The notes: generated by a model from the sequence alone, not told the origin. A stretch of DNA of 47,276 bases from Gemmatimonadota bacterium (GCA_041612005.1 JBFILW010000001.1:1-47276); one strand, 5' to 3'; counted from the first letter of the stretch, positions 23,843 to 29,481 are shown. Made by a program: numbers and translations.

Positions 23843-24448
23843 TCAGTCCAGTGAGCGCGTAATGATGTAGTCGTGCCCCTTTACGTGGCAGGTGAGGCAC
23901 GTGGGCACACCGAGGCCGGCTTCGGCCGGATCTTCGGGGATCATGTAATCGCCGGAGGCCGTCTTGCCGGACTCCTGATCGGACTGCACCTGATACCAGT
24001 ACCAGCCGCGACCGTGGTTACTGGATGCATGCGCCTTCACGGCCACGGCCCAACCCCACGGAAGTCCGTTCTCGTCCGACATCTCCAGCACCGCCGCCGC
24101 TCCCTGGTGGTGGACCGGGTTGCGAGCCTGGACCGACCGGGCCAGCGACGGGCTCAGGAAGACTTGCGCCTGGTCTCCGTGCGGATCGACTGCCGCGTGC
24201 GCTGCCGTTTGATGCGGCCAGGTCTTGTAGGCACCGGTAGCCAGGAACGCGCGCAACTCTTGCGGGTCGGTCGGGACGGGAAGCGTGTCGGGCTGGAGTC
24301 CGGCCTCCAACGAAGCTTGTGTGGCGATCGCTTTGACGTCGCCGGCGTTCCCATCGTCAGCAAACGGCATGCTGACCCAACGGGCGGAGAGCAAGCCGGG
24401 TATCAGCACGATGAGCGAGAGTACGACAAAGGTTCGAGTGCTCGGCAT
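23843..24448 (-). CDS. cytochrome P460-like periplasmic haem protein
   Basis: Track ORF trimmed to ATG 24448 (MPSTRTFVVLSLIVLIPGLL signal/anchor). A single CLTCH haem motif (23885-23899) is followed by KGHDYIITRS at the extreme C-terminus, as in P460-family proteins. Confidence 0.5.
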   Translation of the reverse strand: MPSTRTFVVLSLIVLIPGLLSARWVSMPFADDGNAGDVKAIATQASLEAGLQPDTLPVPTDPQELRAFLATGAYKTWPHQTAAHAAVDPHGDQAQVFLSPSLARSVQARNPVHHQGAAAVLEMSDENGLPWGWAVAVKAHASSNHGRGWYWYQVQSDQESGKTASGDYMIPEDPAEAGLGVPTCLTCHVKGHDYIITRSLD

Positions 24449-24538
24449 GCAACAATCTACGATTTGAGCGGTACACTGGCACCGGGACGGTGCCGCTCGC
24501 ATCATGTCGCACCTCGCGGGATGGTCCGTGAGGCCTTT

Positions 24539-24611
24539 GGGGCCGTAGCTCAGTCGGGAGAGCGCCTGCTTTGCAAGCAGGAGGTCACCGGTTCGATCCC
24601 GGTCGGCTCCA
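24539..24611 (+). tRNA. tRNA-Ala (anticodon TGC)
   Basis: GGGGCCGTAGCTCAGTCGGGAGAGCGCCTGCTTTGCAAGCAGGAGGTCACCGGTTCGATCCCGGTCGGCTCCA. Cloverleaf with a 7-bp acceptor stem including the Ala identity pair G3:U70, anticodon TGC at 24572-24574, and a GGTTCGATCC T-arm. CCA is not encoded. Confidence 0.95.
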
Positions 24612-24821
24612 TTCTTCTATCCCCGCTTTTCTCCGGAAGGCAATCGTGTCGGTTAGTCCGGACTATCCCTTCCGTCGGCTGACACCAGAGGTATCGCCCC
24701 ACACCTCATTGAGGACTTTCCCCGACAGACAGTCGGAGTTGGGAGGGTTAGCATACGGGTCTGAGTTAACGGACTGGGAAGGACCTCGTGGCCAATCTCG
24801 GTAATAGTGAGGGCTAGAGTC

Positions 24822-25031
24822 ATGCAGAAGTCGATGATCAAGAAGATGCGCCGAATGCCCATGTTCCCCTTGATGCCGATTGTCCCTCTGACGGCAATGA
24901 TAACCGTGGTATCTCTATCTGTGCTGAACTATCGCGGCTTGAGGAAGTTGGAGGAGAAGGTTGATGAGCTGGGCCGATCAGGGTCGAGATCAGAAGATCC
25001 GGCGGCCAGTGAGCAAGGCATGGTAGCGTAA
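24822..25031 (+). CDS. hypothetical 69-aa single-TM protein
   Basis: MQKSMIKKMRRMPMFPLMPIVPLTAMITVVSLSVLNYRGLRKLEEKVDELGRSGSRSEDPAASEQGMVA. Basic N-terminus, one TM helix, charged tail. It lies in the lower-GC stretch after the tRNA. An in-frame GTG at 24807 is also possible. Confidence 0.4.
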   Translation: MQKSMIKKMRRMPMFPLMPIVPLTAMITVVSLSVLNYRGLRKLEEKVDELGRSGSRSEDPAASEQGMVA

Positions 25032-25123
25032 GATTCGGCGCCTGAGCGGCATCTTGTTATAGAGACCGAAACCGGTGTGATTTTGAATTGTACCGGAAAT
25101 CTGGAAGCTCTTCCAAGATCGCC

Positions 25124-26887
25124 ATGAAAGCCCAACACACTGAGGCTCCTGCCGGCGTCCGCCACACGCTTCCCTCGTTTCGCCAGCTTACCATCGTCGC
25201 TCAGGATCCGAGCATCGAGGGGCACGACGGGAACGTCCTGCGCTCGAAGGTCGTCGTGCCTGCCGAGGAAATGCGCTCGGGGCCGTGGGGTTATCGGACC
25301 CAGGTAGTCGACTACGATGCGACGCGCGGGAAATCGTACCGGAAAGCGACCCTCTCGGACGTCGATGATCCCCTTGCCGAGGTGGAAAACCGGGAGGCGC
25401 TGCTCCGCGATCCAACGCTCCATGCCGTCAACTGCTACGGCCTCGTCATGCGGACGCTCTCGAGGTTCGAGCGCGCGCTGGGCAGGCACGTCTGCTGGGG
25501 CTTCTACGGGCACCACCTGAACGTCGTGCCGCACGCCTTCGCCGAGGCCAACGCCTACTACTCGCGTGACGATCACGCGCTGCTATTTGGCTACTTCACT
25601 CCGAAGAGCGACCCGGCGGGACGCGTGTTCACCTGTCTGTCGCACGACATCGTCGTGCACGAGACGACGCATGCGGTGCTCGATGGTCTGCGGCCTCGCC
25701 TGATGGCGCCCTCGTCCCCGGACCAGGCCGCGTTTCACGAAGGCTTCGCCGACGTCGTGGCGTTGTTGTCGGTATTCAGCCTGCCGGGCGTCGTCGAGAC
25801 GGTGCTGCGTCACGCCCTGGGAGGGCCAGCCCAGACGCTCGAGCCAACACTCGTTACCAGGGAGAAACTCAAAGAGAGCGGCCTTTTGGGGCTGGCCGAA
25901 GAGTTCGGCCGCGAGCTTCGCGGCATCCGGGGTGACGCCCTCCGTCGCTCGGTAAAGCTGGAGCCGAAACCCGACTACTACCAGGCGACCACGGGTCCGT
26001 GGGTCGAGCCCCATCGACGCGGCGAGATCCTGGTCGCTGCCGTTTTGAACACTTTCGTAGACGCATGGCTGCATGCGGTGGGACGAGTCGCCGACGTCCG
26101 GCGGGTGCCCCGGGCGACGATTGCCGCCGAGGGCGCTCGCGTCGCCGATGTCCTGCTGACGATGGTGATGCGCGCGATCGACTACACGCCGCCTGTACAC
26201 CTGAATTTCAGGGACTTCCTGAGCGCGCTGCTGACAATCGACACCGAGCTGTGGCCGGATGACGAGGGGAGCAAGTATCGTCTGCGGCATTATCTCAAAG
26301 CCAACTTCAGCGGCTTCGGTATCGAGCCGGTCACGAGTCTCGCGACCCATGGCGGCTGCTGGCGCCATCCCAGCCAGGATCTTCGGTATGAGCGTAATCG
26401 CTACGAGCAGATGCGCGCGGAGCCCGATGAGGTCTTTCGCTTCATCTGGGAAAACCGGAAGGCACTCCGACTGAACGAGCAGGCATACAGCCGGGTGCTC
26501 TCGGTGCGGCCGGTGGTTCGCGTAGGCACCGATGGATTTGTCCTGCGTGAGGTCGTTGTGGAACACCTCGAAACGCTGAAGGTCGCCGCGAAGGACCTCT
26601 CCACGGTTCACCATCCCGACAAGAAGGGACACATCGAGAAGCCCGAGGGAATGCCCGACGGGCTGGAGATCAAGCTGCATGGCGGCGGAACGTTGATCTT
26701 CAACGATTTTGGCCTGCTCAAGTACCACATCAGCAACGGCGTCGGCGAACCCGAGCGACAGAGCCGGCGACTCGAGCACCTGTGGAGACGCGGTCACCGA
26801 TTCGGACGGCCGGAGCGTTCGAACTTCGACGAGCTTCACAGGGCGCGAGCCCAGGGCGCCGTCGACAATCCCGGGGAGGTCTGGTAG
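25124..26887 (+). CDS. signal-less thermolysin-like (gluzincin HExxH...E) metalloprotease with unknown C-terminal domain
   Basis: 587 aa from ATG 25124; the track starts at TTG 25088. HETTH is at 25658-25672, and HEGFAD at 25736-25753 has its Glu 23 residues after the second His. NAYYSRDDHALLFGYF lies upstream. No signal peptide or propeptide is visible. Confidence 0.8.
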   Translation: MKAQHTEAPAGVRHTLPSFRQLTIVAQDPSIEGHDGNVLRSKVVVPAEEMRSGPWGYRTQVVDYDATRGKSYRKATLSDVDDPLAEVENREALLRDPTLHAVNCYGLVMRTLSRFERALGRHVCWGFYGHHLNVVPHAFAEANAYYSRDDHALLFGYFTPKSDPAGRVFTCLSHDIVVHETTHAVLDGLRPRLMAPSSPDQAAFHEGFADVVALLSVFSLPGVVETVLRHALGGPAQTLEPTLVTREKLKESGLLGLAEEFGRELRGIRGDALRRSVKLEPKPDYYQATTGPWVEPHRRGEILVAAVLNTFVDAWLHAVGRVADVRRVPRATIAAEGARVADVLLTMVMRAIDYTPPVHLNFRDFLSALLTIDTELWPDDEGSKYRLRHYLKANFSGFGIEPVTSLATHGGCWRHPSQDLRYERNRYEQMRAEPDEVFRFIWENRKALRLNEQAYSRVLSVRPVVRVGTDGFVLREVVVEHLETLKVAAKDLSTVHHPDKKGHIEKPEGMPDGLEIKLHGGGTLIFNDFGLLKYHISNGVGEPERQSRRLEHLWRRGHRFGRPERSNFDELHRARAQGAVDNPGEVW

Positions 26888-26889
26888 CC

Positions 26890-28203
26890 ATGGCTGCGCC
26901 GCGGGAGGTTCGGGTCCGTTCCTATCAGGTGGGCTTCGGCGACTGTTTTCTACTGTCCTTCATCTACAAGACGGTCGAGAGGCACGTGCTGATCGATTTC
27001 GGCAGCACCGGCAAACCGCGCCACCCGGCCGAGCTCGACGGCTCGCTCAAGAGCCACTTGCAGAGGGTCGCGGATCACATCGCCACCACCTGTGACGGCA
27101 AGCTCGATGCGGTGGTTGCGACGCATCGGCACAAGGATCACATCAGCGGCTTCGACACCAAGAGCGGTCCGGGTGCCACCATCCGCAGCCTCAATCCCGA
27201 CGTCGTGATCCAGCCGTGGACGGAGCACCCGGATGCGGCGATCGATGCCGAGATGGCTCCGGGAATCACGACCGACGACCTCGCATTCGCCAAAGGACTG
27301 CAGCAGCTGGATGCGATCGCCGAATCTGCCGTGGCCCTGGCAGCGACTCTCAGGCGACGCCCGGCCCTCCGCACCCGTTACGGATCTGCACTCATCGACG
27401 AGCTCGGTTTCCTCGGTGAAACGAACCTCGCCAACAAGAGCGCGGTCGAGAATCTCATGACCATGGGGACCTCGCGCCGCTACCTCTCATACGGTCAGAA
27501 TTCTGGCCTCTCCCTGTCGGGCGTCAGGGTCCACGTTCTGGGCCCGCCCACCCTGGCACAGTTCAAAGAGATCCGGACGCAGCGGACCGAGGACCAGGAG
27601 GAGTTCTGGATGCTTCAGGCGGTCGAGCAACAGACCAGCCCGAGTCCGGGTGAGAGCACCCTGTTCGAGGAATACGAGCTCGGCCGGCACGACCCGGCCT
27701 CGGTCTGGCTGCGTCAGCGTCTGCAGCGGGCCAACATCGAACAGCGCCTGAAGATCGTGCGGCGGCTCGACAGTGCGCTCAACAACACCAGTGTCATTCT
27801 GCTGTTCGAGGTCGGCGGGCACCGACTGCTATTTCCGGGCGATGCGCAGATCGAGAACTGGGAGTGGGCCTTGAAGCGGGCGCCCGACAAGCAACAGAAC
27901 CTCACCCTCCTGCGAGGCGTCACGGTATACAAGTGCGGCCATCACGGAAGCCGCAACGCGACGCCCAAGACTCTCTGGAACAATTTCGACGAGCGGAATA
28001 CGGATTCCGCAGCCGAGCGGCTGAGGGTTTTCGTCTCGACCGCCGAGGGCAAACACGGCCATGAAGAGAACAACAGCGAAGTGCCGCGGGAAACCCTAAT
28101 GAACAGCTTCCGGCAACAGACCGAGCTGTTCACAACCGAGACGGTGGACCCCAATCTGGATGAGCCGTTCGTCGAGCACGTGCTGCAGATCCAGAACAGT
28201 TAG
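26890..28203 (+). CDS. free-standing ComEC/Rec2-type metallo-beta-lactamase-fold hydrolase (putative nuclease)
   Basis: 437 aa from ATG 26890, 2 nt after the upstream TAG, with GGGGAGG upstream. Motifs: VGFGDCFLL, ATHRHKDHISG (HxHxDH, 27124-27141), LLFPGDAQIE, CGHHGSRNA (27937-27951). Confidence 0.85.
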   Translation: MAAPREVRVRSYQVGFGDCFLLSFIYKTVERHVLIDFGSTGKPRHPAELDGSLKSHLQRVADHIATTCDGKLDAVVATHRHKDHISGFDTKSGPGATIRSLNPDVVIQPWTEHPDAAIDAEMAPGITTDDLAFAKGLQQLDAIAESAVALAATLRRRPALRTRYGSALIDELGFLGETNLANKSAVENLMTMGTSRRYLSYGQNSGLSLSGVRVHVLGPPTLAQFKEIRTQRTEDQEEFWMLQAVEQQTSPSPGESTLFEEYELGRHDPASVWLRQRLQRANIEQRLKIVRRLDSALNNTSVILLFEVGGHRLLFPGDAQIENWEWALKRAPDKQQNLTLLRGVTVYKCGHHGSRNATPKTLWNNFDERNTDSAAERLRVFVSTAEGKHGHEENNSEVPRETLMNSFRQQTELFTTETVDPNLDEPFVEHVLQIQNS

Positions 28204-28215
28204 GGGCAGACGCGT

Positions 28216-29481
28216 TTACTCGATCGTGATCTCGAGGCAGGCGTGCGCCTCCCGAAGTGCGCGTTCGACCGCTTTCGGGCCGTCGGGTGAACGGGCGAAG
28301 ATAAACCCCAGGTAGCGGTTCCCCTCGGGCAACGGGACGACCTCCTGGCCTGGACGGAGGCTGATCACGACATCCTCGATCCCCGGCACGGCGAGCGCCG
28401 CATCCGTGCCCTCGACGGAAACCAGGCTGCCGGCTCGCGGAATCGGGATCATCATGGCTCCTGACGCGTCTGTGGGAGTGTTGATCAAGTCGATCGGGGC
28501 TCCGGTCGCGTGCAGCAGGATCAGTTCTTCGAGCGTCAGACCGGTTCGAAAGCGAAACAGGCGCGAGCAGAGTCCGCCGATCGGGCGGGGGGCCATCTCG
28601 AGCGGCCAAATTCCGGCTTCGTTGACTCTCATCTCGGCGTGCACGGGACCGTGGCAGAGGCCAATCACGCGAGCCACCGCTGCCGCTGTATCCGCAATCG
28701 CTTTCTGCGTCTCCACCGGATGCCGCGAGGGAGTGACGAATAGAGTTTCTTCGAAATAGGGGCCATCGAGCGGGTCCGGTTTGTCGAGCACGGCGAGGGT
28801 TCGCAGCTCACCATCAACGAGAAGGCCCTCGAGCGCCACTTCCGAACCGGGCAGGAACTCCTCGACGATAATCCGGCCCGTATCGTCGGGTGGATCGGCA
28901 CCGGGGTTCCGCTGTGCGCTTGCCTCCGCGGCGATGCGGACCACGCGACGAAATGCGGCCGCCAGCTCCGCCTCATCATCGGCGCGAATCACCCCGCGGC
29001 TCGCGGCGAGCGAGACCGGTTTCACGACACACGGAAAACCGATCCGGCCGGCCGCGCGGCCGGTGATTGAACCCGGGTCTTCGCCCACGCCGAACGCCTC
29101 GAACCGGGGCGCCGGAAGCCCCGCGTCGCGGATCGCCTCCCGGAACAAGTCCTTGCGCCTGGCCGTGCGCACGGCCTCGATCGGATTGTGCGGCAGACCC
29201 AGAGCCGTCGCGGCTGCCGAGGCGAGGACAGTACCCTCATCCTCGGCCGCTACGATCGCGGAGAGCGGGTAGTCGGGGTGAAAATTGGAGATCACGGACA
29301 CCGCGCGGTCAGGATCGTTGAAATCGACCGATAGGTTCGCGCCCGGGGTGACGTCGCTGAGCGCCGCTTCGTGGTCGGAGGCGACCGTGACCGCGACGCC
29401 GAGCCGCTCGGCCGCCGACAGGAAGTCCTCCGCCTTGTAGCTACTCGAGGTGACGAGAAGAAGGACCCGACTGGCGCTCAC
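28216..29481 (-). CDS. ATP-grasp domain protein (carboxylate-amine ligase type)
   Basis: 421 aa. The GTG start abuts the nfuA-like stop. Pre-ATP-grasp N-terminal domain, then KDLFREAIRDAGLPAP..., FPCVVKPVSLAASRGVIRA, and EEFLPGSEVALEGL. Confidence 0.8.
   Translation of the reverse strand: MSASRVLLLVTSSSYKAEDFLSAAERLGVAVTVASDHEAALSDVTPGANLSVDFNDPDRAVSVISNFHPDYPLSAIVAAEDEGTVLASAAATALGLPHNPIEAVRTARRKDLFREAIRDAGLPAPRFEAFGVGEDPGSITGRAAGRIGFPCVVKPVSLAASRGVIRADDEAELAAAFRRVVRIAAEASAQRNPGADPPDDTGRIIVEEFLPGSEVALEGLLVDGELRTLAVLDKPDPLDGPYFEETLFVTPSRHPVETQKAIADTAAAVARVIGLCHGPVHAEMRVNEAGIWPLEMAPRPIGGLCSRLFRFRTGLTLEELILLHATGAPIDLINTPTDASGAMMIPIPRAGSLVSVEGTDAALAVPGIEDVVISLRPGQEVVPLPEGNRYLGFIFARSPDGPKAVERALREAHACLEITIE

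Follow-up and report, generated by a model that had tools for sequence, protein, structure and literature searches.

What does a cell gain from a gene for a putative zinc protease that is followed, two nucleotides past its stop codon, by a gene for a nuclease-like hydrolase? The question is raised by two open reading frames (ORFs), hereafter ORF1 and ORF2, in a 47,276-nucleotide stretch of DNA (the window) from a Gemmatimonadota bacterium (GCA_041612005.1 JBFILW010000001.1:1-47276). An original prediction, made from this sequence alone, had read ORF1 as a thermolysin-like protease and ORF2 as a free-standing metallo-β-lactamase (MBL) hydrolase of the ComEC type, and had proposed that the two form a defense-like module. 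Following this up computationally, we find that the pair is probably a widespread and undescribed metalloprotease version of a suicide-type immune module, one in which a protease gates the effector.

An obligate gene pair with two intact active sites

ORF calling returned both genes at the coordinates and sizes first proposed (Table 1). The junction between them reads TAG-CC-ATG, so that ORF2 does begin 2 nucleotides past the ORF1 stop, with the GGGGAGG sequence in place ahead of it. Related loci were gathered by exact look-up and by a scan of GTDB species-representative genomes (80 loci kept), the scan confirming at least 594 ORF1 homologs. Whether the two families recur as neighbors had been set beforehand as a possible refutation of the proposal. 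Wherever the sequence continues beyond the ORF1 homolog, which it does in 83 loci, an ORF2 homolog lies directly downstream on the same strand (83 of 83), and the three remaining loci stop at a contig edge behind it. The genes nearly touch: across 70 loci the median distance from stop to start is 1 nucleotide, and in 59 it falls between -17 and +10. The two proteins also vary together, their pairwise distances being correlated (r 0.63, Mantel p 0.001) and the nearest neighbor being the same for both in 42 of 71 pairs. ORF1 and ORF2 are a fixed unit, and the invariance of their catalytic residues, described below, shows both active sites to be under selection.

Look-ups started from ORF2 homologs found an unannotated gene for 568-570 amino acids lying 2-5 nucleotides upstream in two cases out of three. 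The third (L095:2379-8181) has a gene for a TNT-domain toxin and a PIN/VapB pair between the ORF1-like (zincin) gene and a 726-residue MBL gene; insertions seem to have separated the partners there. One further protein, P0153 (1271 residues), carries an ORF1-like zincin at residues ~231-808 and an ORF2-like MBL from ~850 in a single chain, whether because the partners are naturally fused or because the gene call reads through from one into the other.

Conservation was read from an alignment of 34 ORF1 family members and then from 71 diverse homologous pairs drawn from independent loci. The motifs behind the original prediction are not chance matches: NAYYSRDDHALLFGYF, HETTH and HEGFAD in ORF1, and GFGDCFLL, THRHKDHISG, LLFPGDA and CGHHGS in ORF2, all translate where they had been placed, and their catalytic residues are invariant or nearly so across the 71 pairs. 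The HExxH motif of ORF1, the helix of Glu206 and Asp210, the NAxY strand and the PHxxGE motif never vary in either alignment. Within NAYYSRDDHALLFGYF the invariant NAxY residues are N143, A144 and Y146 (71 of 71), and H205, E206 and D210 are likewise the same in all 71 sequences, HEGFAD aligning with NEAISD of thermolysin and NESFSD of aureolysin. ORF1 thus has in common with thermolysin and aureolysin (family M4) and with fungalysin (M36) the HExxH motif, a Glu within an (N/H)ExxxD helix and an NAxY/W edge-strand motif. The spacing of the Glu differs: Glu206 sits 23 residues past His183, whereas the distance is 20 in thermolysin. By analogy with thermolysin His231, the histidine of PHRRGE is a candidate for the one that stabilizes the transition state.

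Profile searches gave matches to the same family, below its threshold. When the 34 members were scanned singly, the Pfam family that kept coming out best was Peptidase_M4, matched by 32 of them (E no lower than 1.6e-4, all below the gathering threshold); M36 appeared, also subthreshold, in three of the 34, and Peptidase_M4_C in none of them. Aligned by hhalign with a thermolysin sequence entered by hand, on whose accuracy the comparison depends, the family profile matched over the HExxH...NExxSD region (E 1.7e-5, probability 79%). A phmmer search of PDB sequences with ORF1 reached aureolysin across the active-site region at E ~1, and the family profile matched no PDB sequence. The AlphaFold2 model of ORF1, with a predicted local distance difference test score (pLDDT) of 79 and a predicted template modeling score (pTM) of 0.85, has no M4 entry among its top 50 Foldseek matches in the PDB. 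With motif and subthreshold profile evidence but no fold match, ORF1 is best described as a divergent gluzincin that is cytoplasmic and has an M4-like active site, and that lies outside family M4. The thermolysin signature first proposed therefore holds for the active site and the profile, but not for membership of the family.

The claim that ORF1 has neither signal peptide nor propeptide also stands. Its N-terminus is not hydrophobic, no propeptide, FTP/PepSY or signal-type domain was found in it with Pfam, and N-termini are hydrophilic across the aligned family, no member of which has a signal peptide. It contains no serine or cysteine protease domain. Compared with M4 proteins, ORF1 is predicted to be cytoplasmic, lacks M4_C, the signal peptide and FTP/PepSY, shows no similarity to them by Foldseek, and has additional N- and C-terminal domains. 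Its architecture comprises an N-terminal β domain, the zincin core, a conserved C-terminal α+β domain and a disordered tail. The C-terminal domain, whose sheet gives weak NTF2-like Foldseek matches, is a candidate sensor or regulatory domain. Of 49 sequences complete at this end, 43 have Trp or Phe as the last residue of the tail, whose acidic-acidic-Trp ending may serve interaction or may plug the protease's own active site as an autoinhibitor. The family is large: there are more than 5000 full-length homologs of ~570 residues (clusters at 90% identity), all "hypothetical" and none with a precomputed Pfam domain, and 3217 representative clusters match ORF1 at E ≤ 1e-3. PHROGs has no family for ORF1, and NCBIfam returned noise only.

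ORF2 reads as an intact ComEC-like MBL-fold hydrolase of the defense-associated clade of protease-gated pro-nucleases. Its residues D18, D83, H84, D318 and H352 are found in 71 of 71 sequences, and H79, H81 and H351 in 70. The original prediction of a ComEC-type MBL domain free of any competence channel is borne out by the structural model (pLDDT 73, pTM 0.80), whose best Foldseek match is the ComEC MBL domain 9ic4 (E 6.6e-9, template modeling score 0.65 on the target). Next come Pce phosphorylcholine esterase and β-CASP/RNase J, with CPSF and RNase Z also among the weaker matches. Unlike ComEC/Rec2, ORF2 is an MBL domain only, with no Pfam Competence domain, no membrane channel and no OB domain, and it has ~140 extra residues in two insertions; TIGR00361 aligns with it at profile positions 561-620 only, scoring 19.7 bits against a cut-off of 190.

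Pfam gives weak Lactamase_B matches to ORF2, and the closer models come from defense proteins. In PADLOC these are LmuA(MBL) (2.5e-19), PDC-M48B (1e-11), RTasMBL (3.5e-9) and Avs1a (1e-8); in NCBIfam they are Avs1a (1e-13) and 6A-MBL (4e-10), with ComEC at 2e-4, all below the equivalog cut-offs. Such scores mark ORF2 as a relative of the defense MBLs, not an equivalog. No system modeled in PADLOC-DB v2.0.0 is fully matched by the pair, ORF2 matching only MBL components of other systems; the original prediction, too, had not recognized the pair as any named defense system.

Table 1. Features of the ORF1-ORF2 locus (positions counted from the first nucleotide of the window; residues are those of the protein concerned)
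Feature	Position	Strand	Remarks
ORF1	25124-26887	+	587 aa; ATG 25124 to TAG 26885-26887
NAYYSRDDHALLFGYF	25550-25597	+	Candidate substrate-binding edge strand, thermolysin NAFW-like; aligns with aureolysin NAAW region
HETTH	25658-25672	+	Zinc-binding/catalytic motif; H179, E180, H183 invariant, 71/71
HEGFAD	25736-25753	+	Glutamate helix; predicted third zinc ligand E206, and D210; equivalent of thermolysin NEAISD
PHRRGE	26009-26026	+	H297, G300, E301 invariant, 71/71
C-terminal α+β domain of ORF1	26402-26791	+	Residues 427-556; high pLDDT, many invariant residues
C-terminal tail of ORF1	26798-26884	+	Residues 559-587; pLDDT <50, predicted disordered; ends in conserved E-E/V-W
GGGGAGG	26873-26879	+	Shine-Dalgarno sequence of ORF2, within the ORF1 3' end; 10 nt before the ORF2 ATG
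ORF2	26890-28203	+	437 aa; start ATG 26890
GFGDCFLL	26932-26955	+	MBL motif I, D18; invariant
THRHKDHISG	27121-27150	+	MBL motif II, HxHxDH; invariant or 70/71
Insertion 1, variable core	27232-27405	+	Residues 115-172, then conserved L172-x-F174-L-G176; low conservation
VLGPP	27535-27549	+	Core strand dividing the two insertions; G218, P219 invariant, also in PflHamM and KaeCanC
Insertion 2, disordered part	27586-27681	+	Residues 233-264; pLDDT <50; conserved L258-F259-(P)
NNTS...LLFPGDA	27781-27846	+	MBL motif IV region; LLFPGDA at 27826-27846; D318
CGHHGS	27934-27951	+	MBL motif V, H351/H352
tRNA-Ala(TGC)	24538-24612	+	512 nt upstream of ORF1; upstream boundary of the two-gene insert; context, not component

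Relation to protease-activated nucleases

Two surveys, by Tuck et al. (PMC12799240) and Evans et al. (10.1101/2025.11.14.688446), show experimentally that ComEC-like MBLs of defense systems are pro-nucleases: the associated protease cuts the MBL at two sites in gating insertions, after which DNA is degraded. PflHamM and KaeCanC are protease-activated DNases of this kind (PMC12799240), and VcMBL is another (10.1101/2025.11.14.688446). Both surveys list exactly three partner protease families, namely trypsin-like, caspase/CHAT and subtilase, and regard extra domains on the protease as sensors (PMC12799240; 10.1101/2025.11.14.688446). In its accessible part, the study of Huang et al. (10.1101/2025.09.03.673762) has a trypsin-MBL module as its subject. 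ORF1 falls outside all three classes. No metalloprotease is mentioned in the main texts of Tuck et al. and Evans et al., in the accessible part of Huang et al. or in the supplements of Tuck et al., and in the literature searched, of which coverage is incomplete, we found no description of a system made of a zincin and an MBL. Protease gating as such has been known since 2025, but a metalloprotease in this role seems to be undescribed, as do both protein families.

ORF2 resembles the established pro-nucleases in its core motifs and in the layout of its two insertions. T78, H79, D83, H84 and G87 are common to PflHamM and KaeCanC, as are the invariant N298, S301 and D318 to HamM and CanC, although ORF2 has the canonical HxHxDH where those two have HxDxDH. 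The ORF2 family profile aligns by hhalign with KaeCanC (probability 90%, E 1.6e-6) and with PflHamM (66%), over the C-terminal core alone. Its insertions around VLGPP, which lie between HxHxDH and the NNTS/GDA block, occupy the same topological positions as those of KaeCanC and are longer (131 and 78 residues versus 87 and 64). The core of insertion 1 is a candidate gating segment and first cleavage region, and the disordered part of insertion 2, where F259 is kept in 90%, L258 in 73% and P260 in 70% of the 71 sequences, a candidate second one. Glycine 104, a cut site of KaeCanC, aligns with G173 of ORF2 in a MAFFT alignment that is unreliable in that region; since the hhalign match covers the C-terminal core alone, the mapping of cut sites rests on that alignment.

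Three published groups invite comparison. First, the trypsin-MBL modules of Hachiman (HamM with protease-HamA), AVAST (Avs1a and Avs2/Avs4-MBL), Lamassu and DRT (PMC12799240; 10.1101/2025.11.14.688446; 10.1101/2025.09.03.673762) have, like the window pair, a ComEC-like MBL effector with two insertions flanking VLGP, and an adjacent, co-evolving protease gene, and by analogy the same logic of a DNase unmasked by cleavage would be expected here. They differ in the protease, which is a serine protease of the trypsin type carried as a fusion with a sensor enzyme, where the window has a stand-alone M4-like zinc metalloprotease, and in that the MBL gene lies upstream, whereas here the protease gene comes first. 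The insertions of ORF2 are longer than theirs, the conserved Ile cut-site motifs are not evident in it, and no STAND, HamB or Lmu sensor is recognizable in the window module. Second, Canu (KaeCanABC, PMC12799240) shares with the window a stand-alone protease gene upstream of a gated MBL gene, in small and poorly annotated loci; its protease, though, is a caspase/MALT1-like cysteine protease that acts with CanB and cuts at conserved glycines, whereas the window module has a zincin in its place and lacks a conserved third gene.

Third, the MBL clade paired with S8 subtilases ("Clade 3" of Evans et al., the "subtilase" clade of Tuck et al.) probably holds the nearest relatives of the window module. 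Unlike the proteases of that clade, ORF1 has no S8 domain, and the surveys are silent on any metalloprotease domain there. In Methylorubrum, however, plasmid pCMU01 encodes a 1032-residue S8 subtilase with an ORF1-like domain at its C-terminal side (residues 429-964, HExxH kept). The domain matches ORF1 residues 17-490 at E 1e-60, and the next gene encodes an MBL 29% identical to ORF2. We infer that this locus belongs to the published subtilase clade. The window module is probably sister to this clade, of which the one member examined also carries a zincin domain. What sets the module apart from the published classes is the type of protease; in its working it would be like them. The idea of a protease that activates a nuclease, put forward in the original prediction, has in this way gained experimental footing in the homologous MBLs paired with trypsin and caspase, and for the metalloprotease pair it is argued by analogy.

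We propose that ORF1 and ORF2 would form a self-contained two-gene conflict module, most likely acting in anti-phage abortive infection. ORF2 would be a latent ComEC-like, zinc-dependent DNA nuclease, with its catalytic center intact and two large insertions about the VLGPP strand. ORF1, a predicted cytoplasmic thermolysin-like zinc endopeptidase, would be made in fixed stoichiometry with it through translational coupling, and both would be kept inactive until a trigger arrives. A signal of infection or stress would be sensed by the non-catalytic domains of ORF1 or by another partner; the activated protease would then cut ORF2 within its insertions and unmask the nuclease, which would degrade DNA and stop phage replication at the cost of the cell. 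We consider this course of events, from the inactive pair to the aborted infection, rather likely. Where related loci have a patatin or Tle1-like phospholipase gene in the operon, the protease may license that enzyme too.

Genomic spread, domain fusions and rival explanations

The hosts of the pair belong to more than 10 phyla in a patchy pattern, with 42-55% identity to the window protein throughout. They include Acidobacteriota, Gemmatimonadota, Alpha-, Beta- and Gammaproteobacteria (Pseudomonas putida, Mesorhizobium and Cupriavidus among them), Myxococcota, Actinomycetota (Mycobacterium, Kribbella), Planctomycetota, Chloroflexota, Bacteroidota, Verrucomicrobiota and Nitrospirota. The nearest relatives of the window's ORF1 and ORF2 come from different phyla, and relatives at 76-78% identity lie in unrelated flanks. 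We found the pair, or a variant of it, on 81 plasmids, conjugative ones included, and hardly at all in phage records. Patchy spread, plasmid carriage and the differing flanks of close relatives argue for horizontal transfer, and indicate that the pair is mobile in this way.

Defense genes are found beside the pair in several genomes. On Rhizobium leguminosarum pRle248a, the gene of a cyclase of the cyclic-oligonucleotide-based anti-phage signaling system (CBASS) is followed by a patatin-zincin-MBL operon and then by the DUF1837 and helicase genes of Hachiman. The Agrobacterium vitis pAvCG78b locus holds AbiEii, PD-(D/E)XK/UvrD, DUF2235 and a DEAD helicase, and the Methylorubrum pCMU01 locus two SIR2 genes and an ATPase/exonuclease set. 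DUF4238, an integrase and a patatin accompany the pair in Deinococcus, and an SMC-like AAA ATPase gene lies directly upstream in Hymenobacter. Among 137 chromosomal genes within two positions of the pair (41 loci, our own gene calls) are SAVED effectors, HamA, GajB, PtuA, a DRT helicase and a HEPN protein, along with ordinary metabolic genes. A defense context, which the original prediction had proposed to look for, thus exists in part: homologs do lie in defense islands on plasmids and chromosomes, but many copies, that of the window included, have housekeeping surroundings.

Some loci add same-strand, often overlapping accessory genes, namely patatin-like phospholipases in 15, Tle1-like/DUF2235 proteins in 8 and astacin-like peptidases in 5. 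The phospholipases may be additional protease-licensed effectors. Examples of such genes on the same strand, overlapping the pair or a few nucleotides from it, are L011:13033-14229, L017:1555-2745, L012:13003-14121, L014:12999-14135, L087:12999-14132 and L091:4839-5981. The astacin-like (M12A) gene stands directly upstream of the zincin gene in its 5 loci and also in the closest relative (78% identity), as at L093:667-1686 and L008:9080-9967; in one close relative a DUF7379 lipase-like gene takes the accessory position.

Several findings weigh against reading the pair as a protease-gated immune module. The ORF1 family has no Pfam match above threshold, and the window protein has none at E ≤ 1. 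PADLOC v2 contains no model of ORF1 and gives it no match at E ≤ 1, and a Foldseek search of the PDB and BFVD with the full-length model returns nothing at E ≤ 1e-3. With neither a significant structural match nor a Pfam match above threshold, the protease activity of ORF1 is deduced from its motifs. No sensor domain is recognizable in ORF1. Insertion 1 of ORF2 is predicted to be helical with moderate pLDDT, not disordered. Many loci have housekeeping surroundings with no other defense gene within 5 kb, and the window pair sits in just such a place; the defense genes counted among the neighbors, a description with no matched control, lend qualitative support.

The most serious rival starts from the domain company that ORF1 keeps. 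In the S8 fusion of Methylorubrum a bona fide serine protease stands beside the ORF1-like domain, and the surveys would count such an extra domain as a sensor. The zincin could then be mainly a sensor, a scaffold or a decoy substrate, the MBL being licensed by another protease (the fused S8, or one of host or phage) or by a conformational change on binding. The missing fold match to known proteases would suit this, and so would P0187 (1194 residues), whose tandem zincin domains read HQLTH in the first, with the catalytic Glu lost, and HEITH in the second, which suggests a pairing of pseudo-protease and protease. We nevertheless think this explanation unlikely: none of the 71 stand-alone proteins departs from HExxH, E206 or D210, which the S8 and STAND fusions keep as well, and the operons of the window pair and of thousands of similar pairs encode no second protease.

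The remaining fusions are of two kinds. In P0221 (843 residues) the zincin, HExxH kept, follows an nSTAND1 NTPase and lacks the ORF1 C-terminal domain; in P0132 (935 residues) it follows a Zn-dependent phospholipase-C-like domain, again with HExxH kept. Zincin fusions to S8 proteases ahead of MBL genes, and to an nSTAND1 NTPase, are typical immune architectures. Many plasmid variants share ORF1 residues ~17-420 alone, which suggests that the C-terminal domain is an exchangeable and possibly sensing part.

Patchy distribution and plasmid carriage would also fit a selfish addiction module of the toxin-antitoxin kind, or a generic stress-suicide module, maintained by horizontal transfer and having no specific anti-phage role. 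Many copies are indeed solitary in housekeeping contexts, and toxin-antitoxin modules are inserted within or beside some loci. We regard this as improbable, given that the homologous MBLs are demonstrated anti-phage effectors (PMC12799240; 10.1101/2025.11.14.688446), that the module lies between CBASS and Hachiman and beside SIR2 and Abi genes, and that it has no small, labile partner resembling an antitoxin.

Much less probable is a housekeeping hydrolase for DNA or RNA processing, in competence, repair or RNA maturation, served by a dedicated maturation protease. The ComEC MBL domain is the best structural match of ORF2, with RNase J, CPSF and RNase Z behind it, and the window flanks are housekeeping genes. 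Against this, ORF2 is without the ComEC channel and OB domain, its closest sequence models are defense MBLs, and the spread of the pair is sporadic and suggestive of horizontal transfer, not lineage-wide, with positions that differ even in close relatives. A set of secreted or contact-dependent antibacterial effectors, which the operonic DUF2235/Tle1-like and patatin genes of 23 loci might suggest, is the least credible of all, since no aligned family member has a signal peptide, the annotated loci show no evident genes for type VI secretion, PAAR, VgrG or immunity, and patatin is also a standard intracellular defense effector, as in CapV of CBASS.

Having preferred the protease-gated module to these rivals, we tentatively extend it, in the knowledge that the extension may well prove wrong. 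The ORF1 family might be a fourth, so far unrecognized class of proteases that license gated MBL pro-nucleases, and might also supply the "subtilase" MBL clade with a constant partner domain that has stayed hidden. As part of a bare two-gene unit ORF1 would be both sensor and activator, possibly by way of its C-terminal domain and tail, and in extended operons it would be a hub that activates zymogens of the patatin and Tle1-like kinds.

The window locus and the meaning of the pair

In the window the pair stands alone. On one side lie the tRNA-Ala gene and genes for redox proteins or an E1 dehydrogenase, on the other an ATP-grasp ligase, a NifU-like and a DinB gene. The original prediction had placed the pair in a tRNA-flanking islet, and a tRNA-Ala gene does lie upstream; however, no att-like direct repeat of its 3' end is present around 24300-28700, and the window has no anomaly of GC content or skew at the pair. 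With no integration scars and a flat composition, we no longer regard the locus as a demonstrable tRNA-targeted island. Rfam, promoter and terminator scans of the window gave nothing interpretable besides the tRNA.

ORF1 has a longer candidate start as well, a TTG at 25088. Two other frames were set aside. One is a GTG-extended, 473-residue version of ORF2 that starts at 26782 (+) and overlaps the 3' end of ORF1, homolog alignments favoring the ATG at 26890; the other is a 418-residue antisense frame within ORF1 (25583-26839, -). Because the GC content is 64%, both look like artifacts.

Between the tRNA-Ala gene and ORF1 is an ORF of 74 residues, or 69 from its first ATG, with a hydrophobic segment (24807-25031, +). 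It has no family match in Pfam, PADLOC, NCBIfam or PHROGs. We considered it as a third component and rejected it, as it occurs solely in near-identical contigs and is absent from all non-identical loci, the closest relatives having other genes in its place; it lies outside the conserved module and is perhaps not even a gene. The region upstream of the window pair holds no remnants of the astacin-like or DUF7379 accessory genes. Adjoining the tRNA, an ORF of 220 residues (23843-24505, -) has a CxxCH motif (CLTCH) near its C-terminus and no Pfam match at E ≤ 1e-4, and may encode an unannotated c-type cytochrome.

The work of 2025 established that bacterial immunity commonly follows a logic in which proteases license death effectors, and the partners of MBL pro-nucleases listed in the two surveys are serine proteases (trypsin, subtilase) and cysteine proteases (caspase). 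If our reading of the pair is true, ORF1 would represent a mechanistically different class of activator, zinc proteases differing from these in specificity and in inhibitors, and two large families of "hypothetical protein" would gain a name and a function. With only two genes, the pair would also be a minimal system for studying how infection is detected by a protease that has no recognizable sensor. The variable operonic phospholipases suggest, in addition, that one protease may control several types of effector.

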